Shown here piece by piece: positions 36,136 to 62,301 of a DNA stretch of 64,000 bases. The notes under the pieces are model-generated. The model searched no databases. It was not told the DNA's origin and saw only the letters and a list, made by a program, of their open reading frames with translations. Where the stretch lies: assembly GCA_041650515.1 (NCBI GenBank), contig JBAZLA010000001.1, positions 82,710 to 146,709 of the forward strand, in the 5' to 3' direction. The translations under genes and the position numbers were made by a program. The number at the start of each line of letters is the position of its first letter. The first letter of the stretch is position 1. The stretch comes from Patescibacteria group bacterium (GTDB lineage Bacteria; Patescibacteriota; Patescibacteriia; JACRDY01).

Positions 36136-36325
36136 CCCCTGGGGTCTGGGGCGAATATGGCGCCAAGTCCCGCTCCAACCTTTCTTGATTACGCCGAGGG
36201 GTGGGACGGGTAAATCCGTAGGCGGATTAACAATGAATTGCGCCTTATAAGCCCCAGGGCTTTTTTGCCCGCCTAGACTCGCTAGGCGAGGCTGGCTACT
36301 TTTTTAGTCATAAAAAAGTAGACAA
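36136..36325 (+). repeat. Family-A structured repeat, copy 1
   Basis: Closing stem ccctggggtctgggg...gccccaggg followed by a T6 run. Conserved blocks are ggcgccaagtcccgc, ttgattacgcc and gggacgggtaaa. It ends with a covarying palindrome ctactttttta-gtca-taaaaaagtag. Confidence 0.6.
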
Positions 36326-36526
36326 CTTCATAGACGGGAGAGGAATCCCTCCGCTCGGATTTCACCCCGAGCCCTTCGGCGGAGTTCATCAACAAACTGA
36401 TTCTTCGCCTCGCCCTGCGGGCTCGCTCAGAATGATGAAATAAAAGAAAACAAAAAAACCACCAATATCCTATCCGCGGCTTTTTTATTCTTAATGATGT
36501 TCCTATCCTCCTACCGTCCTATCCTC

Positions 36527-37615
36527 CTAATTACTAAACCTAAAATAAACCGTATCCCCATCTTGCACTACATAGTCTTTACCCTCGAGGCGGACCAGAC
36601 CGCGCTCTTTACAACCCGCTTCACCGTATTGAACAAAATCCTGCCAATTGCAAACTTCCGCCCGGATAAAACCTTGCTGGATATCCGTGTGAATTTTCCC
36701 CGCGGCCTCGGGCGCCTTAGCTCCCCGCGTCACGGTCCAAGCGCGCGTTTCGTCTGGACCAGTAGTCAGGAAAGTAATTAAATTCAAAATCTGATAACTT
36801 TTTTTGATCAATTTATCCAAACCGCTTTCATTCATGCCTAATTCTTTGAGATACTCCTTTCTTTCCTCATCATCTAGCTCTGCCAACTCCGCTTCAATTT
36901 TGGCTGAGATACAAACCACTCGCTCTGGATCAAGGCCTTCTAGTACGGGCAGGGCAGTGCCCTGCCCCCTACCCACCGCTGATTCGTCAACATTCATCAC
37001 ATAAATCACCGGCTTGTTGGTCAATAAATTCAAATCATGCAACGACTTTTTTTCTTCCTCATTTAAACCCAAATCGCTGACTAATTTACCCTGATTCAAA
37101 CCATCTTTAACGCGATTAACCAATTCAATATTAAATTCATCTTCTTTACTCGCGCCGCTCTTGGCTTTTTTATTTAATTCCGATAACCGGTGGGACACCG
37201 TTTCCAGATCTTTAATTGCTAACTCAGTATTAATCGTGGCAATATCCGACTGCGGGTCAACCTTATTATTAACGTGAATAATATTGGGATCAAAAAAATC
37301 GCGCACCACTTGGACAATCGCGTCCACCTCGCGAATATTAGCCAAAAATTTATTGCCTAGTCCTTCGCCAACGCTGGCGCCTTTGACCAATCCGGCGATA
37401 TCCACAAACTCAATCACCGTCGGCACAATTTTGGCTGACTTGGCCACCATGGCTAATTTTTCCAGCCGTTCGTCCGGCACCGCCACCACGCCAACGTTTG
37501 GTTCGATGGTGCAAAAAGGATAATTAGCAATATCAATTTGTTTTTTGGTCAGCGCTTTAAATAACGTTGATTTACCAACGTTGGGCAGGCCGACAATTCC
37601 GATGGCCAAAGACAT
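36527..37615 (-). CDS. ychF: Ribosome-binding ATPase YchF
   Basis: GIVGLPNVGKSTLF, NxxD, and a C-terminal TGS domain. The ORF track extends it upstream to 37672. Confidence 0.85.
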   Translation of the reverse strand: MSLAIGIVGLPNVGKSTLFKALTKKQIDIANYPFCTIEPNVGVVAVPDERLEKLAMVAKSAKIVPTVIEFVDIAGLVKGASVGEGLGNKFLANIREVDAIVQVVRDFFDPNIIHVNNKVDPQSDIATINTELAIKDLETVSHRLSELNKKAKSGASKEDEFNIELVNRVKDGLNQGKLVSDLGLNEEEKKSLHDLNLLTNKPVIYVMNVDESAVGRGQGTALPVLEGLDPERVVCISAKIEAELAELDDEERKEYLKELGMNESGLDKLIKKSYQILNLITFLTTGPDETRAWTVTRGAKAPEAAGKIHTDIQQGFIRAEVCNWQDFVQYGEAGCKERGLVRLEGKDYVVQDGDTVYFRFSN

Positions 37616-37626
37616 AAATAATAATT

Positions 37627-39315
37627 TTAATCGCTTAGAATTCTCCAGCCAGAAACAGTATAATGCTGCCAAATATAATTATCTGCTCCTTTTTCTTCCC
37701 GTTGTTTTTTCAGCCAATCTTCAACTGCAAACCAGTTGATGCCTTCTTCTTCTGTTGGACAGAATTTTGCATCCCAAACACTTTCGGTAGTAGACATCAT
37801 CTCACCATTATAAAGTTGCTTTTGAACTATTTCTTGTCTGTAATTTTTGTACCAACAGCTCCAATGGGCTAACTCAATACGCTTATAACCTTCCGCCTCA
37901 AAACCATTCACCCATTTATTTATTTCCGGCTCCAGTCTGGAAATCTGTTCATAAGCATCGGCCGAGAAACTATGTAAATATTCAATGTCTAATTCTGTGG
38001 TCTGATCAGCCAGATAACGGTCAATGTTAGTCTTGGCGATTTTAGCTTCCATATTTATGCCGGTCATAAACATCAAATAAATAATGGAGATAACCAAACC
38101 CGCTTTGACATAAGAATGATAATTCTTCTTGGCTAAACTAAAGACGGCCAAAGTGATCAGAATCAGGGCGAGATAAATGATAAAATGCCAAACTAAAAAT
38201 CGGAGATGTGTCAGGCCATAGACTTCTTGATAAAGCCACAGACGCTTGAGAGCGGAAGCCACGATCACCATGGTTTGCAGAATAAAAACCAAGATTAATA
38301 TCACCACCCGATCAACCTCATGATTTTCTTTTTTTCTATAGATAATGTAGCTGATCAGCAAAACTAAAGCGGTAACAAAAGCCAGCTGAAAAAATCCTTG
38401 ATGAACATACTCGGCGTAAGTGATGCCCCGTTGAGTGATAATCTCGTGACCGCCGAAAAAAAACATCATCTGAGCCATGATAAAAGTCAGAAAGAATAAA
38501 TTTAAAATCACCAAAAAAACCGTCGTGACTAGATTATCTTTAGACAAAGTATCGCCGGCAGAGGTTTCTGTCGCTAAATTTTTGGCATGATCTTCTTTGA
38601 ACCGAGGCTGAGACGCAAAAGCATAAAATATTCCACCAGCAAATAACAAGACCAACAAGTCTCTAAAAACTTCCCCGATTAGACGTTCGTCCAGTTTAAA
38701 GTCAAAAATACTTGTTACCCATTCTCTATATAATAAATCAGCTTCAATAAATAACGAGCCAAAAATAAAAATAAAGGGAACGCTGATCAAAATAGCCAGG
38801 ATAATTTTTTTAGTGGTTTCCTCTTTTTTGGAACCAGCCTGACTTTTAATAATTCCTTTCCAGGGTGCGGTGATTTTCGCCAGCCAATAGCTGACAAAAA
38901 TCAAAATTTCTTTAGGAAAAATTGATCTTACTTTTTTGAGCGGATAGTGCTCCGGCGCTAGCCAGAAAAGTAGCAAAACAGTCAAAAAAATACTGGCCAA
39001 AGGCGCGACAACATGAACAAAAGCATTCTCATAAACAAAAACCGACCCGGCATACCAAAGAATAGGCAGACAAAACCACATCGGCCAGAGAGTAACTAGA
39101 GACTTGGTGTTAACTAGTCTAAGAATTAGAATAATAAAGATAAACAGAGCGACAAATAGAAAAAAATTAAGGCCTAATTGGTTGCCCGTGTCTATGATGG
39201 GAAACAAAAGGTGGCAAGCAACAGCCGTCATCAAAGCCATTAAAGCGATAACATAATTGTTGATTCGAGTCATATAAACATATTTAATACTACATTTAAT
39301 TATTTGACGGTTCAA
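37627..39315 (-). CDS. Large polytopic membrane protein (about 12 transmembrane segments) with C-terminal soluble domain
   Basis: Hydrophobicity pattern only. No catalytic motif recognised. Confidence 0.45.
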   Translation of the reverse strand: MNRQIIKCSIKYVYMTRINNYVIALMALMTAVACHLLFPIIDTGNQLGLNFFLFVALFIFIILILRLVNTKSLVTLWPMWFCLPILWYAGSVFVYENAFVHVVAPLASIFLTVLLLFWLAPEHYPLKKVRSIFPKEILIFVSYWLAKITAPWKGIIKSQAGSKKEETTKKIILAILISVPFIFIFGSLFIEADLLYREWVTSIFDFKLDERLIGEVFRDLLVLLFAGGIFYAFASQPRFKEDHAKNLATETSAGDTLSKDNLVTTVFLVILNLFFLTFIMAQMMFFFGGHEIITQRGITYAEYVHQGFFQLAFVTALVLLISYIIYRKKENHEVDRVVILILVFILQTMVIVASALKRLWLYQEVYGLTHLRFLVWHFIIYLALILITLAVFSLAKKNYHSYVKAGLVISIIYLMFMTGINMEAKIAKTNIDRYLADQTTELDIEYLHSFSADAYEQISRLEPEINKWVNGFEAEGYKRIELAHWSCWYKNYRQEIVQKQLYNGEMMSTTESVWDAKFCPTEEEGINWFAVEDWLKKQREEKGADNYIWQHYTVSGWRILSD

Positions 39316-40351
39316 CCGTTAGACCCAACCTTTGCTTGACCCGTGTCAAAGTATAATCAACATCCTTCACCGTTGCTCCCTTACTCGTGCCCCAGATTTT
39401 AGTGCCCAGTTCTAAATTAACTACATTGAAGCGACTATCGGCCACTTTACTATTTTTGACCAGAAAGTCAACCAAATCCAACCATTTTTCTTTTTCCTCA
39501 ACTGGCTGACCCAATAAACCGGCATGATTATCACCTTGATAAAATAATAAGATACTCAAGATATCGGCGATGAAAAACCGATGTTGGCGGCCAAGGGCTA
39601 TTGGTCGAGCCAGATAACCTATTGCTGGCACAGTAATATGGAGATAATTAATCAATGGTAATAAATTATTTTTGATCAAATCGGCTTTTATTTTCTGGTA
39701 ATCACCATAATAGCAAACTAAACTATGAGCCAAATCAAACGTTAGGCCAACGCTATCAAGACTTTTTAACTGCGAAAAAAATTCGCCAAAATCATTTAAA
39801 TCTGAGCCAAGTTCATAATAACCATTAGCAAACCGAGGTAAACTTTCAAAATTAATAATTACCCTTTTAGCTTGAGTCAGAGGCGCAATCTCGTTTATGA
39901 CCTGTGCTAAACGCGCCAGCTCGGCTTTTTTATCACCCCGGCTGTGACCGATATGGAGTGTCAGGATAGATGGATACTTTTGATCATCAACTTGACCAAT
40001 CTGCGCTAGTTGACTAGTTAAATCAATCTGATCCGCAATTAGTGCTAGACTAGTTTTTGATTCTTGAGCATAGTTAATCCGATTAAACTGAAAATCAAAA
40101 TCGGTCAAACCATGCAGTCGGATGCCATGAGTGCCATTAGTTAATGGCATTCGATGATTAATATAGGTCTGCAAAAATTTTGCCACTCGTTGTGGCTTTA
40201 ATTGCAAAGTAGGCCAATCAATCACCGGCCGACCAACAAAAGGCCGTGGTTCCACTCCGCTGATTTGCGCTAAAATCTGAGGCACACGCCTAGATATCAA
40301 TGAATAAAGCTGAAGTGATTTATAGGTTGACGAGGGTAAAATAATATTCAT
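39296..40351 (-). CDS. Hypothetical protein, possibly TIM-barrel (weak UvdE/xylose-isomerase-like motifs)
   Basis: LHIGHS..D, FDLAHS and NYLHIT resemble the metal-binding motifs of UV-damage endonuclease / AP-endonuclease-2 folds. The resemblance is weak. Confidence 0.3.
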   Translation of the reverse strand: MNIILPSSTYKSLQLYSLISRRVPQILAQISGVEPRPFVGRPVIDWPTLQLKPQRVAKFLQTYINHRMPLTNGTHGIRLHGLTDFDFQFNRINYAQESKTSLALIADQIDLTSQLAQIGQVDDQKYPSILTLHIGHSRGDKKAELARLAQVINEIAPLTQAKRVIINFESLPRFANGYYELGSDLNDFGEFFSQLKSLDSVGLTFDLAHSLVCYYGDYQKIKADLIKNNLLPLINYLHITVPAIGYLARPIALGRQHRFFIADILSILLFYQGDNHAGLLGQPVEEKEKWLDLVDFLVKNSKVADSRFNVVNLELGTKIWGTSKGATVKDVDYTLTRVKQRLGLTVEPSNN

Positions 40352-40401
40352 ATTGGTCTATATTGTAACTGACTTCCAATAAAAACAAAAGTTTATACTA
40401 A

Positions 40402-41166
40402 CTACTCAATTGACTTCGAACTAATTCCCCACAAAAATTCAAACAGCTGCTTGAGGCTAAACGCCAAATCGGGTGAAAAAATAATAAAAGCAGCGTTCTC
40501 CTTGGAAGTAGAGATTACCCCAATATTATTTTCATAAACATAAATACTGGATTGAAGATCAACATATTCTGGTAAATATTTTATCTGCCGCAGATATTCT
40601 TGTTCTTGCACAAAAACAGCCGGGATATCAATCGATTTAGATTTTATTCTGAGCGAACGGCATTTCAAACCCTTGCTAACGCGCCTCTTGACCCAGCTCT
40701 CCATCCACTTAGGATCAACGGTCTGCAAAGTCAATTGCGGCGGCGAGAAATAAACGTATTCCTTTTTAGTCGTGGCCAAGATATCTTCATAAACTTCACG
40801 AGCGGAAAAAGGACCACTATGTATTTGGACAAATGGCTTTTTGTTTTTAGCAGCGTAGATAGCCAAAAAATCCGGCAATAAATCCTTTAATTGCTCTTTC
40901 TGGTGCTCAACCTTTTTGTAGAGCTCTTTAGGATGAGTCGGAATGAAAATCTTCCTTTTACCCTGCAGAATTGAGGTAATGTAGCCTCGTTCAGCTAAAA
41001 CCCGCAAATTATCGTAAATAGCGGTCCGACCCAGCTTTAAATCAACCGCTAATTCATAGGCGGTCGCTTCGCCGCGACTAAGCGCGGCCAAATAAATTTG
41101 GGCTCTTTGTTCGTCTAAACCAGTGGCTAAAAGCCAAGCCAAAAGATTGTTATTCATATATTTCAA
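40402..41166 (-). CDS. TrmB-family transcriptional regulator
   Basis: N-terminal winged helix-turn-helix (QIYLAALSRGEATAYELAVDLKLGRTAIYDNLRVLAERGYI) plus a C-terminal TrmB-like domain. Confidence 0.6.
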   Translation of the reverse strand: MKYMNNNLLAWLLATGLDEQRAQIYLAALSRGEATAYELAVDLKLGRTAIYDNLRVLAERGYITSILQGKRKIFIPTHPKELYKKVEHQKEQLKDLLPDFLAIYAAKNKKPFVQIHSGPFSAREVYEDILATTKKEYVYFSPPQLTLQTVDPKWMESWVKRRVSKGLKCRSLRIKSKSIDIPAVFVQEQEYLRQIKYLPEYVDLQSSIYVYENNIGVISTSKENAAFIIFSPDLAFSLKQLFEFLWGISSKSIE

Positions 41167-41625
41167 TTATTTTTGACAAAATTACTGTTTATTTATGTCT
41201 AAATTAAGCCAAATATATACTCCTATCGCCTATTATTTAAATATATTTTACCAAATATCCAGCTTTTAGTATAGTCAAATTAGTAAAGTAATTTTTAAAA
41301 TAAACACGGTCTGATTAAAACCTAAGAATATGAACGCAATTCATTCGCCTAAAATCCAATTCTTTACCTATATGAGCTCGCCTAGGCGGCAGAAGTCGCG
41401 CTGATTTTTATGGTTGGGTGTGTCCGAAGCCCTAAATAATAGATCCGCCTTCTGCTGGCGATTTTTTGTTGCCTCGGAAACATCCTAACAATCATTTAAG
41501 TGTTAAGCCATTGGCACCAACACTCACTCAGGGGGGGACAATAAAAACAAGAATTTATTCTGGGAGATGAGACAGCCATCATCTCCCTCTTTTTTTCTAA
41601 ACTAAAGAGACCTATATTTATTCAC

Positions 41626-41752
41626 ATCATCTCGAGCGAGCCCACGGGACGAGTCGAGAGATCTAAAGGGATATTTCCAATTATGTACTATCGAATAGAC
41701 AGATCCCTCCACTCCGCCCCGACATACGTCGAGGCTTCGGTCGGGATGACAG
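41626..41752. repeat. Family-B repeat (ctcgagcgag...ggtcgggatgaca subtype)
   Basis: Shares gagtcgagagatctaa...agatccctccactccgccccgac..gtcg.ggcttcggtcgggatgaca with the copy at 52407. Confidence 0.7.
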
Positions 41753-41787
41753 ACAAAAAACACCATTGATTTCTCAATGATGTTCTT

Positions 41788-41864
41788 TGGTGGACCCGAG
41801 GGGATTCGAACCCCTGACCTTCTCCATGCCATGGAGACGCGCTAGCCAGCTACGCTACGGGCCC
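41788..41864 (-). tRNA. tRNA-Ala (anticodon GGC), CCA encoded
   Basis: Cloverleaf folds. G3:U70 Ala identity pair. Anticodon loop aUGGCau. T-loop GGTTCGAATCC. Confidence 0.85.
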
Positions 41865-41869
41865 ATGCT

Positions 41870-42652
41870 TTAATCTTGTTTTTCGCGATAAACTTTTTCG
41901 ATGGCTCTAAAAGAACGTGAATTAAACGGCTTAAACTCATAATCTTCTGCTAACCAAGCCGGGCGAGCAAGATTATCGGGTGCGTCAGGTATATTCAACC
42001 GAGCTAAACTTGCCTGATACCTAGTCTCTACACCATGACGATAATCAACCATTAAACCAACTAAGGCTTTTCTCAACTCATCAAAGTTATTGCCACTAAA
42101 CAATTGCTCAATTGCTTGATAGGTATCCTTAACTGCTGGAATATCCAAATATTTTTGAAACTCTTCTGGCCTAAGTATATAACAAGCGATCAAATCCGCT
42201 TGATACTGGCAACCCGGTCCGCTAGATGGCAAAAGCTCTTTCCCATCCTGATGGGCAATACTAGCCAACTGATCCTCGAGAGAATGCCCGACTTCATGAA
42301 AAAAACAATCCGGTAATTCGTTACCATCCCAATAATCCATATTAATCGTCACCATGTCAAAATCAATCTGCATATCCGGTCGTCGAGGAGTATTACCGCC
42401 TGGGTTATAGCTATCGTTATGGTCCAACCAAACTTTAACCGGGTGATCCAAAAATGGCGCTAAGTGATCAGCCATTTTGGTAAAAAGCGCCCGTGTCTCT
42501 GGCTGATTATGATATTCCTTAAAACGCAGCTCGGCCTGACCGTTCTGATAGACTGATGCCTCTCCTTGCTCTGGGGCCTTGGCCTGATCGCTACCACCTC
42601 GGGCCTCAGGGTGAAAGAATCGACCAAACAATCCTCGTCCTGCTTCGCGCAT
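41870..42652 (-). CDS. Putative zinc metallopeptidase (HExxH)
   Basis: FFHEVGHSLED motif. Start codon uncertain (no clear Shine-Dalgarno sequence). Moderately GC-rich. Confidence 0.45.
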   Translation of the reverse strand: MREAGRGLFGRFFHPEARGGSDQAKAPEQGEASVYQNGQAELRFKEYHNQPETRALFTKMADHLAPFLDHPVKVWLDHNDSYNPGGNTPRRPDMQIDFDMVTINMDYWDGNELPDCFFHEVGHSLEDQLASIAHQDGKELLPSSGPGCQYQADLIACYILRPEEFQKYLDIPAVKDTYQAIEQLFSGNNFDELRKALVGLMVDYRHGVETRYQASLARLNIPDAPDNLARPAWLAEDYEFKPFNSRSFRAIEKVYREKQD

Positions 42653-42764
42653 ATCTTATATTATTTTAGTAATAGCTATTTTAGCAGACTTTTAAAAAAA
42701 ATCAACTCAGTTGACAGAATAAGTGATTAATCTACAATAACAACAATCCAAGGAGGTTTTAGTT

Positions 42765-43100
42765 ATGAATGCCGGTATTGAAAATCCGGAAATATATCTC
42801 GCGTTGTTGCGAGCTACGGCTAATGCGCAAATTCTATACAATCGGGCGGTCTTCTGCCTGATGCACCACGCCTGTAGCCACAGCCACCAACCAAAATTAG
42901 AAACTCCCATGATGGCTTTTGCCGATCTCTGGCAAACTGCCAACACTACGCTCCGGCGGCAAAAAGCTCGAGAGTTTCTACAAGCCGCCACCCGGCTCGA
43001 ACTCGGCTGGGTCTGGCCGGATCAACCGACCGAGGAAGAACCAACCGAGAGGCAACTGGCCGATGCTTTCGCCAATCTGCTTAAGCATCTCAATCATTAG
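42765..43100 (+). CDS. Hypothetical protein (111 aa), GC-rich island
   Basis: AAGGAGGTTTTAGTT-ATG, with a terminator gacccatccgggtc followed by a T8 run downstream. Confidence 0.5.
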   Translation: MNAGIENPEIYLALLRATANAQILYNRAVFCLMHHACSHSHQPKLETPMMAFADLWQTANTTLRRQKAREFLQAATRLELGWVWPDQPTEEEPTERQLADAFANLLKHLNH

Positions 43101-43293
43101 ACCCATCCGGGTCTTTTTTTATACCCCTACGAATTTTTATCATGTCATTGCGAGCGTAGCCCCCGACCCGTGTGTCGGGGGCGGAGCGAGTCGAAGGATA
43201 GTTTATAAAAAAGACCCGGAAGAAAGAGCCCCAATGGGTTTTCTCCGGGTGGCGAATCTTTACGATCCGCTAGTTTTCAGTTGTCCGTGTGCT

Positions 43294-43728
43294 TCAGCAG
43301 TTGAGCACGGTGACGATCCCCACGGAGGAGTTGAAGCCCAGGCTGGACAGGTAGCTTTCGTCCACGGCGGCGACTTCCTCACGGATTTCCTTCGAATTGA
43401 CGTCGTTCTCGTTGACGGCAATATCGTTGGAAACGCACTCCGTTCCTTGATCCATCGGCGCGACGTCGTTGTTCGCATCCTTCGACTGTGCGGCGGTGAT
43501 CACGTTGACCAGGGAAGCGGGCGGCGACACATCAACGGTCGCCGAGAGATTGGGCGCCGCGTAGTTCGCAGCCAACCCGAAGATAATCGCCTGATGGTTC
43601 GCAACGACGGCCGGAGTCTCATCGGTGGCCTCGTTCGCGACCTGAACCGGAGCGGCCTGCGCGACGGTCAGCCCGACCATCAGCACCGCCAAACAACACA
43701 ACGCAATGCACAAAAACAGTTTTCTCAT
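43294..43728 (-). CDS. Secreted hypothetical protein (signal peptide), GC-rich island
   Basis: AAAGGAGAAGAACCG-ATG and an N-terminal signal peptide (MRKLFLCIALCCLAVLMVGLTVAQA). Confidence 0.5.
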   Translation of the reverse strand: MRKLFLCIALCCLAVLMVGLTVAQAAPVQVANEATDETPAVVANHQAIIFGLAANYAAPNLSATVDVSPPASLVNVITAAQSKDANNDVAPMDQGTECVSNDIAVNENDVNSKEIREEVAAVDESYLSSLGFNSSVGIVTVLNC

Positions 43729-44168
43729 CGGTTCTTCTCCTTTTCGAAGAATTTTTGCCCCACCCTGGCTGATTGAAACCCTAGGGTTCCGAATCTGATA
43801 CCAAAGCGGTGCGCCTCCTGATTACCCTAGCAATCCCCTACCGATCGATCCAAATTAACCAAACTAGCTGTCATGGGGGTTGACTACTTCCCACTGACTA
43901 GCTCCCAAGGGTTAGTTGGGTCTCATGCTTGTTGAGGGATAACAGATCTAGTGCTAGTCTGGCTAGCAGTTTGATCAATCGTGATCGAATCGGTTTTGAA
44001 GGTTGCTTTTGGGTTATCATAATAATACTAATTTTATTTTTATTTAGCAAATAAAAAATTGCTTCGGCCGCCGGTAACCAATTGACAGAATGATTTATAA
44101 ATAATAAAGTGAGTTATTCGGTCTAATTTTGGAATTTGGAATTTTCAACTTTCTTGGAGGGCAGTAAA

Positions 44169-44645: not shown

Positions 44646-44750
44646 CCAACCGACGTCACAACCCCGAGGGTAACCATCCCCTCTTTTTTTATTGACAAAT
44701 CACTAAAAATAATATTAGATAAGCATAACTTTAACTGCGAGGTCACGAGA

Positions 44751-50578: not shown

Positions 50579-50669
50579 CGTCATTGCGAGCGTAGCGAAG
50601 CAATCTCCTGAATAATCCACCAGATTGCTTCGTCGCCCCCCGATAAATCGGGGAGCTCCTCGCAATGAC
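50579..50669. repeat. Family-B repeat (gtcattgcgagcg...gctcctcgcaatgaca)
   Basis: Carries hairpin gacgaagcaatctcctgaataatccaccagattgcttcgtc, identical to copies at 29070 and 54310. Confidence 0.8.
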
Positions 50670-50732
50670 AATAACAACAGTTTAGCTCAAAATCTAGCGA
50701 AAATCAACTAAATATGCTAGGTTAAACTAAGT

Positions 50733-52543: not shown

Positions 52544-52553
52544 ATAAAGACCT

Positions 52554-54212: not shown

Positions 54213-54286
54213 GGGAGTACTTGCCCCGTGATCCGCCTTAGGCGGATTTTATGGGGCTATCAGAAGGAAATATATTAAATTCCACT

Positions 54287-54385
54287 GTCATTGCGAGCCC
54301 GCCGCAGGCGGACGAAGCAATCTCCTGGGTAAACCACCAGATTGCTTCGTCGCTCCCGCCTAAAGGCGGTCGCTCCTCGCAATGA
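54287..54385. repeat. Family-B repeat after paralog B
   Basis: Preceded by a duplicated gene-end fragment atcagaaggaaatatattaaa. Carries hairpin gacgaagcaatctcctgggtaaaccaccagattgcttcgtc. Confidence 0.8.
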
Positions 54386-54507
54386 CGCTAAAAAACTATA
54401 CCCACCTGCCAAAACTGCCAACCAGCAGTTTTTTGATTTGACATTATTTCTAAAAAGGCTAAGCTTAAACATACTCTCAATAGTTCTTTACCAAGTAGGA
54501 GGGGTTT

Positions 54508-54873
54508 ATGAAACCCAAACGCGGCAGCCAGAAGATCGAGGTGGATTTTCTGTACGTGGTGATGCCACGGGCACATCGAGTGGTCTTCGTTGCCACTCAA
54601 GACGTGCCCCACGGAGTCAACCTCGAAAAAGTGGTCCAAAAATATGTTTTAAATGAACTCAAAAAAGCGGGGGAAGGACATCGTTTCTTCTGGTATCGTC
54701 TCGACAACCACATGAGGCCGCCGAGGAACCGCCCTCGTCCAGGCGATTTCCATGTACTCCAGGTCTATTACGGATCGACGGCAAATCGGGACGCAACCAA
54801 GGATATGTCTCAACCAGATTCCAAATGGCTGCGACAGGCTGTCCATGCCCTGCTGCGGCAACTGGCGGCCTAG
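54508..54873 (+). CDS. Hypothetical protein (121 aa), GC-rich islet
   Basis: AGGAGGGGTTT-ATG. Has a downstream hairpin and T-run. Confidence 0.5.
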   Translation: MKPKRGSQKIEVDFLYVVMPRAHRVVFVATQDVPHGVNLEKVVQKYVLNELKKAGEGHRFFWYRLDNHMRPPRNRPRPGDFHVLQVYYGSTANRDATKDMSQPDSKWLRQAVHALLRQLAA

Positions 54874-54969
54874 CCGCTATCAGACACGCTGTGTCCAACC
54901 CAGTCATTACGACTGGTTTTTTATTAAAAAAAGTCGCGAAGCGACACCTTTATTTTTAATTCTTAATTT

Positions 54970-57789
54970 TTAATTTTTAATTTCTTTAGTCTCGCCCCAA
55001 TTATCTCCCACCTCGATTTTAACCTCAATCGGCACCCGGAGTTTATAAACATTCTCCATCGTTTCTTGAATCAATCTAGCCGCTTTTTTAACCACGCTAT
55101 TTTTGACTTCAAACACTAGTTCGTCGTGCACCTGCAAAACCATTTTAACTTCGTCGGGCTGGAATTCTTGCTTTAACTTCTGATCAACTTGAATCATGGC
55201 TAGTTTGATTAAATCAGCCGCCGTACCCTGGATCGGTGCGTTAATGGCCATCCGCTCGGCGGCGTTGCGCACCTGTGCCAGACCAGAACTGATCTCAGGC
55301 AAATAGCGCACTCGGCCAAAAAGCGTTTCCACATAACCATGCTCACGCGCCGAGGCTAAAGTCTCACGGATAAACTGCTCGACACCGCTAAAAGCCGAAA
55401 AATATTTGGTGATAAACTCCTGAGCTTGCTCGCGTGAAATACCAGTCCGCCAAGCTAGGCCGTAAGCACCCATGCCATAAAGCACACCAAAATTAACTTC
55501 TTTAGCATTGCGGCGCATCTCTTTGGTGACCTCCGAGAGCTTAACTCCATTGATCTCAGCCGCGGTGGCAGTATGAATGTCTTCATTATTTTGAAAAATC
55601 TCCAACATTTTCTTGTCCTCAGCTAAAGAAGCCACAATCCGCAGCTCAATTTGCGAATAGTCAGCCGCCAGGATCTGATAACCTTTTTCGGCCACAAACG
55701 CCCGACGGATCTGTCCACCCAATTCAGTCCGAATGGGAATATTCTGGAGATTAGGTTCAGACGAAGACAGGCGACCCGTTGAGGTAACAGTTTGATTAAA
55801 ACTAGTGTGCACCCGGCCAGTAATCGAATCAACTAGATCGGGCAGAGCTTGAGTATAGGTACTCTGGAGCTTAGCGAGCTCGCGGTGCTGGGAAATATAA
55901 TCAATTATTTCGTGCCGACCACGCAGTTTTTCCAGTTCGGCCGCAGCCGTCGAGATACCGGTCTTGAGTTTTTTTAGTCCACCAGTAGAGATTTTAAGCT
56001 TATCAAACAATACTTCTTTAAGCTGCAACGGCGAATCAATATTAAAGTCGGTACCAGCCAACTGATGAATTTTTTGGTCCGCGATCAGACGCTCTTTTTC
56101 AATCCGAGCATCAAGCTTAGCCAAAAATTTAGGATCAATTTTAACTCCGGTTAATTCCATTTGAACTAAAATCGGAATCAACGGCATCTCAATTTTTTCC
56201 ATCAGGCCCAAAATATTTTTGCGCTCCACTTCATTACTTAATTTTTGGTAAAGCTGATAGGTATAATCAGCATCTTCGCAACAATATTCAGCTACTCGCT
56301 CAACTGGCACTTGGTCTAACGTCAGCTGGTCTTTGCCTTTGGGACCGATTAAACTTTCAATCGGGATCATCTCATGCCCCAGCTCCGTAAAAGCCAAGGT
56401 ATCCAAATCATGCGCCCGGCTACCGGAGTTAAGTAGGTAAGAAGCAATCATGGTGTCGAAATAAACTCCTTGGACATCAATCCCAGCCTGCTGCAGAATC
56501 TCTAAATCATATTTCAAGTTGTGACCGATTTTTTGGACGTTCTTATCTTCTAAAATCTTTTTAATTTCATCGCCGATGGCCGGTAGCCGATGGCCGATGG
56601 CTAAATACCAACCCTCTCCAGCTCGCCAGCTAAACCCAATGCCAACCAACTTAGCTTCCAAGGTATTTAAACCAGTGGTTTCGGTATCAATCGCTATTAC
56701 TGCTTGTTTCTTTAATTCAACCAAAAAACTTTTTAAACTCTTGGCATCATCAACCAAATGATAACCTTTGGGCATTTTAAAATCACTGCGGGCACCAGAC
56801 TCCTGCACGGGCAGGGCACTGCCCTGACCCCTACCGACTGCAAATAAATCTCCCTGCTTTTGTTGCTGTTTACCACTCAGCTCGGGCAATCGATTTAATA
56901 GCGATTTAAACCCCAAATGTTGAAAAAGCATAAACACCGCTTGATTATCAAATCCGCGCACCGCCGCTTCCTGAAGATTAAACTTGATCGGCGCATCAGT
57001 CACAATCGTCGCTAAGTGCTTGGATAATAAGGCATCTTTCTCATGTTCTAACAGCAGTTCTTTGATCCGTGGCTTAATTTCTTCACCTTCTTGTTTTCTT
57101 GCTTTTTTGTTTTCTTGCTTTTTTGTTTTCTTGATTTCTTGATACAGGTTCTCCAACGTACCAAACTGTTGCAGCAATTCCGTAGCAGTTTTTTCACCCA
57201 CACCCTTGACCCCGGGCAGATTATCCGATGGATCACCCCGCAGGCCCTTATAATCAACCATCTGCGCTGGCGCTAAGCCATAACGCTCCTTGACGGCCGC
57301 GGCATCGTAGATAACCGTATCGTTAATGCCTTTTTTGAGCGTAAAAACGGCGGTGTCATCGTTAATCAACTGCAATGTATCCATGTCGCCAGTAACAATA
57401 ATATTTTCTACCTGCCCATCTGTCTGACGACAAATTGTGCCAATCAAATCATCGGCCTCATAATTATCTTCTTTGTAAATCGGAATATTAAACGCCCGAG
57501 CTAACTGCTCTACTACCGGAATCTGGGCATAGAGCTCGTCCGGCTGTTTTTGGCGGGTGGCTTTATACTCGGTATATTCTTGATGACGAAAAGTTTTTTT
57601 GCCTTTGTCTAAAGTCAGGACAACATAATCCGGCTTAAGATCTTTATAAATTTTGAGCAAAATCAAAGCAAAGCCGTAAACAGCATTAACCAACATCCCG
57701 TCTTTACTGGTCAGCGGCGGCAAAGCGTGGAACGCCCGATGGATCAGGGCATTGCCGTCAATAACAATTAGTTTTCCTTTCTTAGACAT
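54970..57789 (-). CDS. polA: DNA polymerase I
   Basis: 5'-3' exonuclease, 3'-5' exonuclease and polymerase (motif A DYSQIELR, motif C QVHDE) domains. A repeat-encoded K/Q/E-rich in-frame insertion sits in the inter-domain linker (57085-57145). Confidence 0.95.
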   Translation of the reverse strand: MSKKGKLIVIDGNALIHRAFHALPPLTSKDGMLVNAVYGFALILLKIYKDLKPDYVVLTLDKGKKTFRHQEYTEYKATRQKQPDELYAQIPVVEQLARAFNIPIYKEDNYEADDLIGTICRQTDGQVENIIVTGDMDTLQLINDDTAVFTLKKGINDTVIYDAAAVKERYGLAPAQMVDYKGLRGDPSDNLPGVKGVGEKTATELLQQFGTLENLYQEIKKTKKQENKKARKQEGEEIKPRIKELLLEHEKDALLSKHLATIVTDAPIKFNLQEAAVRGFDNQAVFMLFQHLGFKSLLNRLPELSGKQQQKQGDLFAVGRGQGSALPVQESGARSDFKMPKGYHLVDDAKSLKSFLVELKKQAVIAIDTETTGLNTLEAKLVGIGFSWRAGEGWYLAIGHRLPAIGDEIKKILEDKNVQKIGHNLKYDLEILQQAGIDVQGVYFDTMIASYLLNSGSRAHDLDTLAFTELGHEMIPIESLIGPKGKDQLTLDQVPVERVAEYCCEDADYTYQLYQKLSNEVERKNILGLMEKIEMPLIPILVQMELTGVKIDPKFLAKLDARIEKERLIADQKIHQLAGTDFNIDSPLQLKEVLFDKLKISTGGLKKLKTGISTAAAELEKLRGRHEIIDYISQHRELAKLQSTYTQALPDLVDSITGRVHTSFNQTVTSTGRLSSSEPNLQNIPIRTELGGQIRRAFVAEKGYQILAADYSQIELRIVASLAEDKKMLEIFQNNEDIHTATAAEINGVKLSEVTKEMRRNAKEVNFGVLYGMGAYGLAWRTGISREQAQEFITKYFSAFSGVEQFIRETLASAREHGYVETLFGRVRYLPEISSGLAQVRNAAERMAINAPIQGTAADLIKLAMIQVDQKLKQEFQPDEVKMVLQVHDELVFEVKNSVVKKAARLIQETMENVYKLRVPIEVKIEVGDNWGETKEIKN

Positions 57790-57941
57790 GGGTATATTTT
57801 ACCATTTCGGACCAAATAAAAAAACCGCCTAACTTCTCTAATTTGTCATCCTAAGCCCTTCGGAATGACAATTAAAAATACTTTATCCCTAACAACATTA
57901 AATTTTTCTAAACAAAAAATCACCCTTCAAGGTGGTTTGGA

Positions 57942-57990
57942 GGCCAGGAGGGGATTTGTCTCCCTACGGGAGATCCCCCATAGGGGGACA
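57942..57990 (-). repeat. tRNA-Cys 3'-end duplicate (ggccaggaggggatttg) + double mini-hairpin module
   Basis: 17-nt identity to 58313-58329, followed by tctccc-tac-gggaga and tccccc-ata-ggggga hairpins. Confidence 0.7.
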
Positions 57991-57997
57991 CCCCTGA

Positions 57998-58279
57998 TTA
58001 TCCAACTGAGTGATTACCTATTCTTAATTTAATAATTTCTTTCTGCTGGCTATTGTGTTTCAACTCATATTCTCTTTTAGCAGCTACCAAATTACTAACA
58101 TAAGCCTCATAATAAACAAGAGCTAACGGCCTTTTGTCTTTTGTTGATTTTACTTCACCCTGATTATGTTTTAAAAAACGGGAACTCAAATCAGAAGAAT
58201 AGCCAATATATAACCACCTCGGATCTCTTATACTCTGTAGGGCATAGACATAAAACATGCCATAAGTATAAAAAACCAA
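57998..58279 (-). CDS. GIY-YIG nuclease domain protein (small, about 86-93 aa)
   Basis: FYVYAL...YIGYSSDL..R...H..G. Likely start is MFYVYAL at 58258. Confidence 0.7.
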   Translation of the reverse strand: MVFYTYGMFYVYALQSIRDPRWLYIGYSSDLSSRFLKHNQGEVKSTKDKRPLALVYYEAYVSNLVAAKREYELKHNSQQKEIIKLRIGNHSVG

Positions 58280-58311
58280 AAGTTAAATATTTCTAAACTT
58301 ATCAAACCAAA

Positions 58312-58383
58312 AAGGCCAGGAGGGGATTTGCACCCCTGCATAGAGGTTTTGCAGACCTCTGCCTTACTACTTGGCTACCTGGC
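58312..58383 (-). tRNA. tRNA-Cys (anticodon GCA)
   Basis: Acceptor ggccagg/cctggcc. Anticodon loop cUGCAaa. T-arm aggggTGCAAATcccct. Confidence 0.8.
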
Positions 58384-58413
58384 CGAAAAAGAAAAAAAAA
58401 TTTAAACAATGAT

Positions 58414-58503
58414 CAGGTTTTGTCTCCCTACGGGAGATCCCCCACAGGGGGACAGACCTCTGCCTGGATTTTATCCGCCTTGGGCGGAACTTGGCTACCT
58501 GGC
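58414..58503 (-). pseudogene. Degenerate tRNA-Cys copy with insertions in D-loop and anticodon loop
   Basis: Shares ggccaggtagccaagt...aggcagaggtctg...caaaacct with the intact gene. There is a 30-nt double mini-hairpin inserted after anticodon position 34 and a hairpin ccgcccaaggcgg in the D-loop. The 3' half is missing. Confidence 0.6.
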
Positions 58504-58600
58504 CGAAATTATTAAATCTCACCCTATAATAACAAAACAACTATCAAAAATCAACCTTACTTTTTTATTATTACTCAAACAATATAGAATAATAAACCCA

Positions 58601-58793
58601 ACTGGGGTTTGGGGCGCCCGCCTAGACTCGACGTCTAGTCGAGGCTGGAATACGGCGCGCAGCCGAGCTCCGACCTTTTTTGATTACGCCAAGGAGCGAG
58701 GCGGGTAAAACGAGCTGGGGATGAACAACGAATCGCGCCTGATGAGTCCCAAAGCTTTTTTGTGTTACTTTTTTAGTTATAAAAAAGTAACAA
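58601..58793 (+). repeat. Family-A structured repeat, copy 2
   Basis: ggggtttggggcg...agtcccaaagc-T6 closing stem. Has ttttttgattacgcc and gcgggtaaaacgag blocks, and the terminal palindrome gttactttttta-gtta-taaaaaagtaac. Confidence 0.6.
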
Positions 58794-58902
58794 CCACTAT
58801 TTTTCCAAAAAAAAGAAGCAGGTGGGCTTCTGTCTAGTGTTGTATCCTCCTTGGAAAACACTAGCTAGAAGCTTCCTGCTTTTGGGGGTATATTGCAACC
58901 CC

Positions 58903-59718
58903 TTAGGCGTCATCCTCCTCCCACGGATACCGGTTGTCCGGTTCGGACTCGGGAACGTGTGGCCCCCGCCGTGGCGGTTCCTCGCATTGCTGCTCGGTCC
59001 GCCCGCGACGCCGGCGGCGGCGGATGATCAGCCAAACGACCAGCAACAGCACCGGGATGCCAATCCGCAGCGCCCAGGTCTTGATCGCCAGATTCCGCTG
59101 GTCCGATTTGGCCTTGGCGTGGCTGGCATTGATCATTTCCATCGCCGCTTGGATGTCAGCCGGCGTGGCTTCGACTGCGGCGTCCTCCTTGAGCCGACGG
59201 TTTTCGGCCAGCGCCGTTTCCAGCGCTGCAGCCTGATCAGCCTGCGCCTGAGCGAGCTGGCCAGCCGGGCTGTCGGGCAACGGATCCGCTTGGTCTTCCA
59301 AGCCCCGCGGATACCAGACCGACGCCGAAGCGCCGGAACTGGCACCCATCAGCTTGTAGCGACCAGAAGCGGACACGTTCCAGGTGGATTCACCGGGAGG
59401 CAATTCGGTCTTTTCTCCAGATCCCTGAAGGGCAAAGACCTTGCCCGAATGGACCGACACCGTCAGCTTGGGTGCCCGCAACGGGTCCATCCAGACGGTC
59501 CGCACGACTTCGTTTTTGGGCAAGCTGTACGGCCCGTTCCAGACGGGGTTTGGGGTTTGTGTTGCTGTCTGCTTCGCCGCGGAGTTGGTCTTGAGCGACT
59601 CGAGCTGCTTTTTGGCCAGCTCGATCAGCTTATCCAGACCAATCTTGGCTTCACCGGTCAGACCGCCGGCCGTCCGTTCGAGAAGCTCAATCTCCTCTTC
59701 GGACAGCGGCTGGCCCGC
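58903..59718 (-). CDS. Hypothetical protein with C-terminal transmembrane segment and poly-Arg tract; continuous in frame with the upstream gene across a TAG
   Basis: Open frame from the codon after TAG(59719-59721) to 58903. The post-stop sequence is coiled-coil-like (EEEIELLERTAGGLTGEAKIGLDKLIELAKKQLESL). The ORF track starts at a TTG (59523). GC-rich. Confidence 0.4.
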   Translation of the reverse strand, partial: AGQPLSEEEIELLERTAGGLTGEAKIGLDKLIELAKKQLESLKTNSAAKQTATQTPNPVWNGPYSLPKNEVVRTVWMDPLRAPKLTVSVHSGKVFALQGSGEKTELPPGESTWNVSASGRYKLMGASSGASASVWYPRGLEDQADPLPDSPAGQLAQAQADQAAALETALAENRRLKEDAAVEATPADIQAAMEMINASHAKAKSDQRNLAIKTWALRIGIPVLLLVVWLIIRRRRRRGRTEQQCEEPPRRGPHVPESEPDNRYPWEEDDA

Positions 59719-60414
59719 CTAGATCTTGGTGCGGATTGCCTCGAGCCGGACAATCTTCAGCGCCTGCTCGTAGTCGGCGTACTCCGCCGCGATCTCGGTT
59801 GCCACCGTCTGGGCCGGATTAACTTGATCAGTTGCCCACCAGAACGGGGTGTTGTGGCCACAGACCCGGACCCAAATCCCCGAAGGAAAAAGGCCGAGAA
59901 TCAGGATCACCAGGACCAACCGGACGCCGGACGCCGCGAGGCGTTTGGGCCACATGCCCGTGGGCAGGCCCCACGCACGGCCGATTGCCCAAAGGCAAAG
60001 TAGCACCAGAAACAGACCGACGATAAAGGTGACGCTGAAGTGGAGCGGGGTGAGGGTCAGCCCGATGATGATAATCAACGGGTAGACCAGGATGGTCGCG
60101 AGAGTCAGGGTCACCGCCCCCCAACCGCGCTTGGCGATTCGCGCCGCCAGATCGGCCAGGTAGAGGGAGATGCCTTTGACCTTGTCCTCGGTAAGACCGA
60201 GGAGTGCGCCCAGCTCCTTGACGACCTTGGTCACCTTTTCCTCGAGAAACAGGGCCAAAACACCGCCGACCAACCAGGCGAGTACTTTCTGCTTGCGGGT
60301 CATCGGCTTGTCGTCTTCGATTCCGAGCCAGGCGAGGAGCATGGTGAAAAACTGAACGTACGGATCTTTCGTTTCGCCGAGGGGATCGGCTGTGGGCTTG
60401 ATGTTCTCGGACAT
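59719..60414 (-). CDS. Polytopic membrane protein (231 aa), GC-rich operon
   Basis: GAAGGAGTACTGCC-ATG. About 5 transmembrane segments. Ends at an in-frame TAG. Confidence 0.5.
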   Translation of the reverse strand: MSENIKPTADPLGETKDPYVQFFTMLLAWLGIEDDKPMTRKQKVLAWLVGGVLALFLEEKVTKVVKELGALLGLTEDKVKGISLYLADLAARIAKRGWGAVTLTLATILVYPLIIIIGLTLTPLHFSVTFIVGLFLVLLCLWAIGRAWGLPTGMWPKRLAASGVRLVLVILILGLFPSGIWVRVCGHNTPFWWATDQVNPAQTVATEIAAEYADYEQALKIVRLEAIRTKI

Positions 60415-60456
60415 GGCAGTACTCCTTCGTTCGTTGCTATCGAGTTGATTCGTTGG

Positions 60457-61110
60457 TTACTTCTTCTTGGGCATTAGCGCGGACATCATGGACGACTGCA
60501 AATGATTGGACATGGCCGTCGCGAAACCCCGCAAGGGAGACCGCTTGATCCAGCCGTGGTCCAAACAATACTGCGTTCGTTGCCAATCGTCCTGCCGCTC
60601 CTTGCCCCAACTTCCCATGAGCAGATACAAATACGGCAAGTCGTCGCGACTCTTGGTCGCAGCGACTACCTGCCGGAAATGATCCTGCGCCCAGGTTGGG
60701 AGATGGGTATACCAGTTGTTGAAAGCCTCATCGGCCGCTTTCAGAGCCGCTTCATCAAGTTTAAAGACTTTGACGGTCTCTTTTTTGGTTCTCAGCTGAG
60801 CACCTTCACGCGCCGGCGGAAGCTCTTTGTCCACGATAACGCTTCCCTCCATGAGGGTATGCGCTTTCTTGGCTTCAACCTCCATCGAGGCGGCTTCGTC
60901 TCCGAAACCGAGTCCGCCAACAGTACCAACCGCTTGCGCTTTTCCGGCGCCAGCGATTGTCTGTTTTATGCCGAATAGGCGATCAAGTACGAAGGCGGCA
61001 ATAGCCGCTACCGTGAAATCGCCAGCATCCGGTACAAAATGACGCAGAAAGCTCTGGACACCAGACGCAGGTTCACTTGCCGCCGAAGCGGTTTTCTTGT
61101 CCTCGGACAT
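60457..61110 (-). CDS. Hypothetical protein (217 aa), first gene of GC-rich operon
   Basis: ACGGAGGATACGAAA-ATG. No recognisable motif. Confidence 0.5.
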   Translation of the reverse strand: MSEDKKTASAASEPASGVQSFLRHFVPDAGDFTVAAIAAFVLDRLFGIKQTIAGAGKAQAVGTVGGLGFGDEAASMEVEAKKAHTLMEGSVIVDKELPPAREGAQLRTKKETVKVFKLDEAALKAADEAFNNWYTHLPTWAQDHFRQVVAATKSRDDLPYLYLLMGSWGKERQDDWQRTQYCLDHGWIKRSPLRGFATAMSNHLQSSMMSALMPKKK

Positions 61111-61360
61111 TTTCGTATCCTCCGTTTCTATCCTGTTATAAACTCTGAAACGACCAAAGGACCACCCTCTAGCCGTTATATTCTCACGCTTATATATTTA
61201 GCAGATTAAAAAGTCGTCGAAACGACCCAAAATCCGCCTTTTTCAAGGGACAGTCAGACTCGCTTTAGCCCGAAAGCTAATTTGAGACTAACTTTATATG
61301 ATAGCATATTTAGAGATAAAAGTCAATGATTTAAACCAAAAAATGGCCAAAATTAGCAAA

Positions 61361-61530
61361 AAAACAAAAAAGCATACGCCCCGACATAACATCGGGGCTA
61401 AACAAAAAAGCAAGGTTATCAGCCTTGTTTTCTTGCTTTTTTGTTTTCTTGTTTTATTTTTTAGGCCGAGTGATCCGCCAATTCGGCGAAAAACGAGGCC
61501 GTATGCTTTCTTGTTTTATTGCTTTATTGA
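61361..61530. repeat. Family-D MITE-like element with terminal inverted repeats aaagcatacgcc / ggccgtatgcttt and internal (ttttcttg)n
   Basis: Inverted termini, internal hairpin ccccgacataacatcgggg, and a microsatellite ttgttttcttgcttttttgttttcttg. Confidence 0.65.
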
Positions 61531-61590
61531 CCTAAAAAACCGCCCGACCAGGCGGCCTTTTAATTTTTATTTGATATCTATCACTTACTA

Positions 61591-62010
61591 CTAACCGCTA
61601 CCAGTAATAGTTTTAAACACTAAAGTTAAAATAGCATAGCTAGAAAAAACCACTATAATTCCAATAATCGACCAAACCATAATTTCACGACCTTTTTTGA
61701 CTCGCTCCTCATTGCCACCGGAAAAAATCCAATAAAAACCACCCAGCACAAAAGCCAAAAAGGCTAACGCGCCAATTGGAAAGATCATAAAATAAGCAAC
61801 CTGAGCAGCAAAACCGGTTAGCCGCGCCGCCGTGTCATCACTAGCCGAGTCATTATAACTGCGATAGCCCATAGGATCGCCTAAACAGATCGTTCCATCT
61901 GGTGTGCCTTCTGGACATTTCACCTCATCAGCCGCTAGAACCGCTAAACTATTGAATAATAAAATAGCTAAACAAGCTGAAAATAAGATCAATTTGATTT
62001 TGTTTTGCAT
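61591..62010 (-). CDS. TrbC/VirB2-like pilin family protein (candidate)
   Basis: Signal peptide plus two hydrophobic helices (FAAQVAYFMIFPIGALAFLAFVLGGFYW, MVWSIIGIIVVFSSYAIL), arranged as in conjugative pilin. Size 139 aa. Confidence 0.4.
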   Translation of the reverse strand: MQNKIKLILFSACLAILLFNSLAVLAADEVKCPEGTPDGTICLGDPMGYRSYNDSASDDTAARLTGFAAQVAYFMIFPIGALAFLAFVLGGFYWIFSGGNEERVKKGREIMVWSIIGIIVVFSSYAILTLVFKTITGSG

Positions 62011-62139
62011 ATGGATTTTAAAATGATTCTAATCTAATTATAGGATATTTTAGAAAAAAGGGATAGGGGAGAAGGACATCCATCATCGCAAGCGAGCTCA
62101 CCAGATTTATTATTTTAAAGCTCTGGGGTAATAGATCCA

Positions 62140-62301
62140 ATGGGGGTTTGGGGGTGTTTGCGGCGCCAAGTCCCGCCCCGGCCTTTTTGATCTTTCCCCA
62201 GGGGCGGGACGGGTAGAACGGAATAAAAATGAACAACGCCCGCGCCTCAAACGCCCCCAAAACTTTTTTGATTACTTTTTTAGTTATAAAAAAGTAACAA
62301 C
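62140..62301 (+). repeat. Family-A structured repeat, copy 3
   Basis: gggggtttggggg...cgcccccaaaac-T6. Has ggcgccaagtcccgcccc and gggcgggacgggtagaacgg blocks, and the terminal palindrome gttactttttta-gtta-taaaaaagtaac. Confidence 0.6.

Follow-up and report, generated by a model that had tools for sequence, protein, structure and literature searches.

A dispersed multicopy cassette with a candidate structured RNA in a Patescibacteria genome

The stretch of Patescibacteria DNA analyzed here (64,000 nucleotides, hereafter the window) is chromosomal DNA of a metagenome-assembled genome (MAG) with a G+C content of 44%, and some of its intergenic regions hold copies of a short repeat, family A, in which a structured, RNA-like module is followed by an AT-rich palindrome. 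The window matches k141_1064255 of ENA ERZ27247363, a 472.5-kb contig of a Patescibacteria MAG, and carries housekeeping genes for RNase Y, RpoB/RpoC, FtsK, RecA, ArgRS, EF-P, YchF and PolA as well as seven tRNAs and a pilin of the type IV secretion system (T4SS) type. In a collection of 5.8 billion proteins the nearest relatives of PolA and FtsK are only 64-71% identical and therefore close relatives of this species do not seem to have been sequenced yet, except for the same species in a second sample. The neighbors of the family A copies are genes for YchF, a DUF4153 protein, the T4SS pilin, tRNA-Cys, a GIY-YIG protein, PolA and small proteins without Pfam domains.

The original prediction described a structured repeat of 170-190 bp that is present three times, at 36136-36325, 58601-58793 and 62140-62301. 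All three copies (c1, c2 and c3) were recovered on the + strand by a covariance model built from them (R1, used with filters off), which scores 142.9 bits for c1, 139 bits for c2 and 140 bits for c3, with the next best match in the window below 18 bits. In addition, the core pattern CGGGTARA-N-AACAAYG-N-GCGCC and the 24-nt palindrome are each present exactly three times in the window versus zero expected. The number of three turned out to be an under-count, as there is also a truncated copy (c4, 17628-17708) and an intact copy in the same orientation about 5.5 kb past the right end of the window (c5, 3238-3370 of locus L135, 143 bits). The total found is four intact copies and one truncated copy, dispersed, and the 9 kb that precede the window yielded no further copy. 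Extrapolated from the local density, about 20 copies would be expected in this genome. The predicted length holds only with the palindrome included, because the RNA-like part comprises about 127-160 nt; the cassette as a whole spans about 200-230 bp. The ordered sequence blocks that were reported as shared are indeed present, but they are not identical in all copies, with GGCGCGCAGCCGAGC in c2 and TTTTTGATCTTTCCCC and AACAACGCCCGCGCC in c3.

Each intact copy follows the same order on the + strand: AT-rich boxes, a G-rich 5' arm, the 5' strands of two further helices (P2a/P2 and P3), the 3' strands of P2 and of the closing helix P1, a run of six U (U6) and the palindrome. In c1 the AT-rich upstream boxes (36100..36139) are ATATTC at about -35 and TACTAG at about -14 to -9 from the G-run, the RNA-like module with the P1-P2-P3 fold extends from 36140 to 36266 with U6 at 36261-36266, a 29-nt GC-rich hairpin module (36267..36295) is located between the U-run and the palindrome, and the AT-rich palindrome CTACTTTTTTAGTCATAAAAAAGTAG (36296..36321) forms a predicted hairpin of -9.1 kcal/mol with a z-score of -6.4. 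The upstream boxes of c2 (58557..58602) include an exact half-palindrome, TTACTTTTTTA, at 58557-58567; the RNA-like module (58603..58762) carries a 33-nt hairpin insertion at 58616-58648 between P1 and P2 as well as tandem G-A/A-G mismatches in P3, and the palindrome (58763..58792, core 58765-58790) has a 13-bp stem. Copy c3 consists of the boxes TTATTA and TAATAG (62097..62141), an RNA-like module with one extra G-C pair in P1 (62142..62270) and the palindrome TTACTTTTTTAGTTATAAAAAAGTAA (62272..62297), and c5 is a variant of c2 that lacks the hairpin insertion. The truncated c4 retains the upstream boxes and the first 41 nt (17668-17708) with the 5' strands of P1, P2 and P3, including GCGGCGCCGAGTCCCGT with two mismatches to the P2/P3 block; it has neither the 3' half nor the palindrome and runs directly into an unrelated inverted-repeat element (17714-17846). 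Over 19,031 aligned positions the window and the ENA contig differ by one base, which is located in the c3 palindrome at 62281 (TTTTTTAG versus TTTTTAAG); the contig of the second sample agrees with the window at this site and ends within the same palindrome. A 99-amino-acid gene call in the ENA record (58409-58708, +) overlaps c2, and since the last third of its product is translated from the 5' half of c2 and stops at a conserved UAA, it is almost certainly spurious.

The intact copies share a nested fold that comprises P1 (11-12 bp), P2a/P2 (8 bp, AUA-GGCGC pairing with GCGCC-UAU) and P3 (10 bp, GUCCCGCYCC/GGGGYGGGAC, or GCCGAGCUCC/GGAGCGAGGC in c2 and c5), the latter capped by the 21-nt apical loop CCUUUUUUGAUUACGCC. 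The internal loop is strongly asymmetric and one-sided, with 3 nt versus 32 nt unpaired, and the unpaired 32-nt 3' segment contains CGGGUARAAC and AUGAACAAYGAAU, which are conserved among the copies in the same way as the apical loop. The original prediction of a 3' arm complementary to the 5' arm and followed by a T6 run agrees with this fold, in which the pairing is seen and U6 is located directly 3' of the P1 3' strand in 4/4 intact copies; the AT-rich palindrome TTACTTTTTTAGTYATAAAAAAGTAA of 11-13 bp starts 1-3 nt past U6. For c1 the minimum free energy fold is identical to the consensus fold (-55.2 kcal/mol, z-score -3.3), and the corresponding values are -63.4 kcal/mol with a z-score of -3.9 for c3 and a z-score of -2.1 for c5. 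Internal G-U pairs would turn into A-C on the opposite strand and the U-run is present on the + strand only, both of which point to the + strand as the putative RNA strand. Pairing of the apical loop with GGGUARA in an H-type pseudoknot was considered and rejected, because a linker of 1 nt cannot span a helix of 10 bp and the covariation is inconsistent with it.

A GC-rich hairpin module of 29-33 nt with the ends GCCCGCCTAGACTCG..CGAGGCTGG had been noted at different positions in two copies, and this holds: with the same 15-nt and 9-nt ends it is found after the U-run in c1 and between P1 and P2 in c2, and it is absent from c3 and c5. In c2 a helix junction tolerates the module, in c1 the module is located beyond the RNA, and the other two intact copies do without it; such behavior is typical of functional RNAs that possess a permissive site.

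The helices are supported by compensatory changes beyond chance, which is significant for so few sequences. With three copies, 93% of the pair cells are canonical and five pairs are changed on both sides, a result reached by 6/500 shuffles, while slid controls are at most 61% paired. If c5 and the palindrome are included, 94.4% of the pair cells of the four copies are canonical and seven pairs are changed on both sides, which none of 500 shuffles reaches, and slid controls are at most 57.5% paired; the covariation thus extends beyond the three copies of the original prediction, as c5 contributes further compensated changes. Two of the seven compensated pairs belong to the palindrome, namely an outer U-A to C-G change in c1, where the outer pair is altered on both sides compared with the other copies, and an innermost A-U to G-C change in c5, so that the compensatory change proposed earlier for the palindrome is real in the form of CTAC..GTAG versus TTAC..GTAA. 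In c3 the 5' arm has a fifth G and the 3' arm a fifth C to pair with it, a compensated insertion that these column-wise counts score as a mismatch. In pairwise comparison the RNA parts of c2 and c5 are 97% identical (differences T/G, C/A, A/G, A/G and T/C) between diverged flanks, the similarity ending about 12 nt upstream and immediately past the palindrome, and the other pairs are 74-84% identical. Recent copying of a sharply delimited unit, gene conversion or strong constraint would each fit the c2/c5 pattern.

Upstream of the G-rich arm the mean pairwise identity of all five copies peaks at -6..-15 (0.52-0.56) and at -26..-35 (0.46-0.62) and drops to a background of about 0.25 further upstream. 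These peaks comprise conserved boxes, TTATTM at about -35 and TAATAR at about -10 with a spacing of 17-18 nt, and this bipartite conservation is as expected of a promoter, which makes an own promoter for family A plausible from the alignment. At the other end, a stem followed by a U-run on the coding strand, as in an intrinsic terminator, is found in all four intact copies; a simple terminator scan does not list P1 with U6, as the stem is a long-range helix. Each of the four intact copies (4/4) is followed by a convergent gene whose 3' end points towards it, and each of these genes has its own terminator just past the palindrome. The convergent genes are mutually unrelated and encode YchF and three proteins without Pfam domains.

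To our analysis no known family accounts for this repeat. Rfam 15 yielded only tRNAs at the gathering thresholds over the window and no match to family A, and scans of the three window copies with E-values up to 10 gave chance-level hits only, like YrlA with 16.6 bits (threshold 69) and rli24 with 18.3 bits (threshold 100). Likewise, about 150 kb of DNA from relatives at 64-71% protein identity, reached via PolA and FtsK homologs (loci L121-L126 and L129-L134) and including the sites syntenic with c2, c3 and c4, contained no homolog and nothing above 17 bits with filters off. A weak match at the site syntenic with c2 (L121 9469-9556) was discarded as a generic palindromic hairpin, GTAGGGGCAATTC..GAATTGCCCCTAC, that recurs in these genomes. 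Since the intergenic spacer holding c3 is 344 nt long here versus 115-223 nt in the relatives, the cassette appears to be a gain in this lineage. Viral contigs (IMG/VR, searched with the core and palindrome patterns) and a blastn search against phages and plasmids gave nothing. In a metagenome scan with a strict exact pattern of 24 positions, which diverged homologs would escape, one locus (L120) was found that is not recognised by the models, and a loose pattern of about 30 bits applied to a genome collection produced 118 chance matches in unrelated, mostly high-GC genomes, with none recognised by the covariance model R2 in 100 of them (L001-L100); these negatives from large collections are weak, as the patterns demanded exact matches.

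Taken together, the most likely reading, to which we give an even chance, is that family A is a lineage-restricted multicopy cassette for a structured RNA of about 130 nt, which would end at P1 and U6 and be followed by a conserved boundary hairpin. According to this reading each copy would be a small transcription unit of its own, read from the + strand; the AT-rich boxes near -35 and -10 would provide a promoter that is weak or non-canonical, P1 with U6 would act as an intrinsic terminator, and the conserved loops might represent the working surface, either for binding of a protein or for pairing with a nucleic-acid target. The downstream hairpin would delimit the cassette on its 3' side, where it may serve as insulation against the convergent gene or may instead be recognised by the machinery that copies the cassette. 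The cassette probably spreads as a unit, and we assume that the family grew by copying of whole cassettes into intergenic DNA and that one copy has decayed since. If it grew by copying, family A would be a small-RNA module of the selfish or domesticated sort, for which ssr9 of Pseudomonas putida offers a parallel. It matches no described RNA family.

The proposal of the original prediction that the repeat is a structured RNA family gains from the covariation, from the z-scores of c1 and c3 and from the strand-specific G-U pairs, but several observations weigh against it. The upstream boxes match TTGACA/TATAAT at only about 3/6 positions each and are not canonical sigma-70 elements, a promoter scan upstream of c1 found no match, and the boxes are unlike the promoter of the 16S rRNA gene of this genome, which has a textbook TTGACA-N16-TATAAT (L135 3860-3930). 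With about 100 nt enclosed by it, P1 would be an unusual stem for an intrinsic terminator. The fold of c2 has a z-score of only -1.0, which is not better than shuffles, and its thermodynamic optimum is an alternative pairing (-58.9 versus -52.0 kcal/mol for the consensus fold); moreover, the minus strand folds about equally stably. The covariation rests on four paralogues of one genome, and family A appears to be restricted to this one species in the collections searched. Finally, the genomes of the relatives are full of lineage-specific repeats with long hairpins, a background that makes a selfish DNA repeat more probable from the outset.

Such a repeat, a non-autonomous mobile or selfish element of the type of miniature inverted-repeat transposable elements (MITEs), repetitive extragenic palindromes or bacterial interspersed mosaic elements (REP/BIME), or palindrome-associated transposable elements (PATEs) of IS200-IS605, is possible, even if we consider it on the unlikely side. 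In this case the nested inverted repeats and the AT-rich hairpin would act as DNA or single-stranded DNA structures for a transposase or recombinase encoded elsewhere and the RNA would be incidental. This would explain why unrelated intergenic regions hold the copies and the syntenic sites of the relatives do not, why c4 is truncated and why the likeness of c2 and c5 stops so sharply between diverged flanks, and it is also in line with a palindrome that keeps its hairpin symmetry by compensated changes, with the break of the second-sample assembly within the c3 palindrome and with the many lineage-specific hairpin repeats in the relatives. The half-palindrome TTACTTTTTTA, located 36 nt upstream of c2, might be counted in its favor too; apart from the palindromes themselves the window has no other exact match to it, none is present upstream of c1, c3 and c5, and the upstream region of c4 has a similar half-site, CTATTTTTTAG. 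However, the aligned flanks revealed neither a target-site duplication nor a consistent terminal inverted repeat outside P1, there is no transposase among the neighbors of any copy in about 87 kb, and the roughly 83 kb of this genome that were read contain no autonomous element with the same ends and a transposase. The MITE alternative of the original prediction also suffers from the divergence of most copies: at 74-84% identity they maintain their helices by compensation and preserve long unpaired stretches, which would not be needed for end recognition, and every palindrome is joined to an RNA-like part, so that there are no 'empty' sites. With a single unit of 130-230 bp, three nested helices and no REP-associated tyrosine transposase (RAYT) seen nearby, the copies do not conform to REP/BIME elements either.

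An unlikely explanation in our view is a conditional terminator or antisense regulator, in which the 5' G-run pairs either with the P3 5' strand or with the P1 3' strand and a ligand or protein decides between a stop at U6 and read-through past the palindrome, antisense into the convergent gene. The alternative helix between the P1 G-run and the C-rich P3 5' strand is possible in c1, c2 and c3 and optimal for full-length c2; it is the predicted fold of the nascent 45-60 nt of c1 and of the equivalent prefix of c2, and a related form appears in c3. It could be a real switch or a mere consequence of the G-runs and C-runs, which pair promiscuously, so the helix may be a by-product of composition. 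As in ligand-binding RNAs, the internal and apical loops are conserved, and every intact copy is directed at a convergent gene's 3' end, but these genes are unrelated, the chance of 4/4 is about 0.06, and there is no likeness to any Rfam riboswitch or leader. A riboswitch or leader proper was dismissed, as it would need a 5' co-directional placement and all four intact copies precede a convergent gene. A small peptide, either a leader peptide or a type I toxin-like open reading frame (ORF), has hardly any probability in our estimation, even though a frame ending at the UAA or UAG in GGGUARA is open in c1, c2 and c3, the stop is kept as UAA or UAG with equal segment length in all copies, c1 could encode 18 amino acids from AUG to UAA (MAPSPAPTFLDYAEGWDG), c3 has an in-frame GUG and the ENA gene of 99 amino acids was called across c2. 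However, a start codon is missing in the vicinity in c2, the peptide lacks hydrophobic character, the substitutions between c1 and c2 fall on codon positions 1, 2 and 3 with 3, 5 and 5 cases and lack a third-position bias, and changes in the P3 5' strand are matched by non-synonymous changes in the 3' strand, which is a signature of RNA pairing. A type I toxin-antitoxin repeat was rejected for the same missing start in c2, the non-hydrophobic peptide and the lacking third-position bias.

The most far-reaching idea, to which we assign a very low probability, is that family A might be an orphan self-propagating guide-RNA module, in which two unpaired RNA regions would specify the boundaries of their own cassette and an RNA-guided recombinase encoded elsewhere would copy the RNA gene together with the boundary hairpin. 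It is suggested by the identity of the apical loop sequence CUUUUUUGAUUAC with the junction of U-run and palindrome: the window has exactly two occurrences of the 13-mer CTTTTTTGATTAC, one in the c2 apical loop (58675-58687) and one at the c3 junction (62263-62275), U6-G-N-TTAC is found at both places in all copies, and in c2 and c3 AACAAC of the internal loop is repeated immediately 3' of the palindrome. Only a single pairing of copies shows an exact match of loop and junction, and this match lies within T-rich sequence. If true, it would mean a bridge-RNA-like system in Patescibacteria in which the RNA itself has become the selfish unit. A diversity-generating retroelement was rejected, as the copies are intergenic, the c2/c5 differences are not confined to adenines, and the gene for an Avd-like protein in the window is more than 4 kb away with no reverse transcriptase seen; a link to retrons or CRISPR was rejected as well, since neither a reverse transcriptase or Cas gene nor an array is present.

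Several other features of the region deserve a short description. The Avd-like gene just mentioned (31223-31717, -) encodes a four-helix-bundle protein of the 23S-rRNA-intervening-sequence/Avd-like type and adjoins EF-P; in the relatives its counterparts are located elsewhere. The 16S rRNA gene is located at L135 4322-5975, about 1 kb from c5, with three tRNAs 3' of it, and the public annotation places an ORF of 133 amino acids inside this gene. A GIY-YIG ORF (57998-58258, -) lies between tRNA-Cys (58313-58384) and a duplicated 3' fragment of tRNA-Cys (about 57935-57960), and on both sides of the ORF there is a copy of a 44-nt hairpin repeat (57952-57995 and 58416-58459, 91% identical). The arrangement of this region (57935-58460) resembles that of a small mobile element inserted at a tRNA gene. 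GIY-YIG genes of the relatives are found at other sites, and a homolog search detected no GIY-YIG paralogues in the same genome.

Further repeats were found in this genome and in the relatives. The element next to c4 belongs to an inverted-repeat family with the ends TTGTCATCCTGAG...CTCAGGATGACAA and variable inner hairpins (window 17714-17846, 57840-57872 and about 34585-34772; L124 13895-14040; L132 15355-15530), which, unlike family A, is common to genera at about 70% protein identity. The generic hairpin GTAGGGGCAATTC..GAATTGCCCCTAC, often with the loop CCTCCAGAGGCGGGCAGGC, recurs in this genome (33256-33284 and 34513-34560, -) and in relatives (L121 9495-9522, L124 2598-2644), and its 3' half resembles the family A segment AUGAAUUGCGCC. 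An intergenic repeat family of about 80 nt (29070-29151, 50596-50677, 54313-54394 and 7617-7693), whose compared copies are 68-82% identical, starts with the hairpin CGAAGCAATCTCCTG..CCAGATTGCTTCG. Among the relatives, a tRNA gene at L124 17255-17500 is apparently nested in another one between the strands of a long-range helix, CCCGCCCGCCTAGC..GCTAGACAAAGCGGGCGGG, and tandem repeats of about 123 nt at L121 4200-5450 carry tRNA 3' fragments.

Almost nothing is known about non-coding RNAs of the candidate phyla radiation (CPR), and its reduced genomes should retain few dispensable elements. A structured RNA with conserved loops and a boundary hairpin of its own that is maintained as four or more intact paralogues in about 35 kb would be either a lineage-specific RNA with a real cellular role or a clear case of a small-RNA gene that behaves as a selfish element. 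Irrespective of this, family A copies cause a spurious protein call (99 amino acids, c2) and assembly breaks, which matters for the annotation of MAGs.

A comparison with known systems helps to place the cassette. MITEs and REP/BIME elements are short, dispersed, non-coding intergenic repeats with inverted repeats and a modular or mosaic structure, the REP units comprising 20-40 nt. Family A is similarly mosaic, with hairpin modules inserted at different places, but differs in that no target-site duplications were found in its aligned flanks, in a divergence that is higher than that of a recent MITE burst, and in its size of 130-230 bp with long conserved unpaired stretches and three covarying nested helices. 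The bridge or seek RNAs of IS110 and the omega RNAs of IS200/IS605 measure about 130-180 nt, fold into structures that contain large internal loops and are encoded at the edge of the mobile unit. The putative family A RNA has a like size, a large internal loop and an adjoining boundary hairpin, and its apical loop repeats its own junction of U-run and palindrome (CUUUUUUGAUUAC); in contrast to these systems, there is no recombinase, TnpB or IscB adjoining any of the five copies and no Rfam match to the omega-RNA/HEARO models. Multicopy small-RNA families like Qrr1-5, LhrC1-5 and PrrF1/2 consist of a promoter, a structured body and an intrinsic terminator, with mapped transcripts and partners. 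Family A shares with them the diverged intergenic paralogues, the compact units ending in a stem with a U-run and the conserved single-stranded segments. It deviates in that a long-range closing helix takes the place of the separate short terminator hairpin, in the non-canonical candidate promoter, in the reduced-genome host from the Patescibacteria and in the AT-rich hairpin after each gene.

The small-RNA module ssr9 of Pseudomonas putida KT2440, which is interpreted as selfish, is described as being present in several copies, some of which stand alone, as tied to palindromic sequences and as moved into REP palindromes by the IS110-family element ISPpu9 (PMC12288879). As far as this description goes, ssr9 copies adjoin or are mobilised by an identified IS110 transposase and enter pre-existing REP palindromes, whereas none was found near any copy of family A, and the family A palindrome, which never occurs without the RNA part, looks like a part of the cassette and not like its target. 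There is no sequence similarity between the two. What both would have in common, within the limits of that account, is a multicopy small-RNA gene that is associated with palindromes and propagates as a unit.

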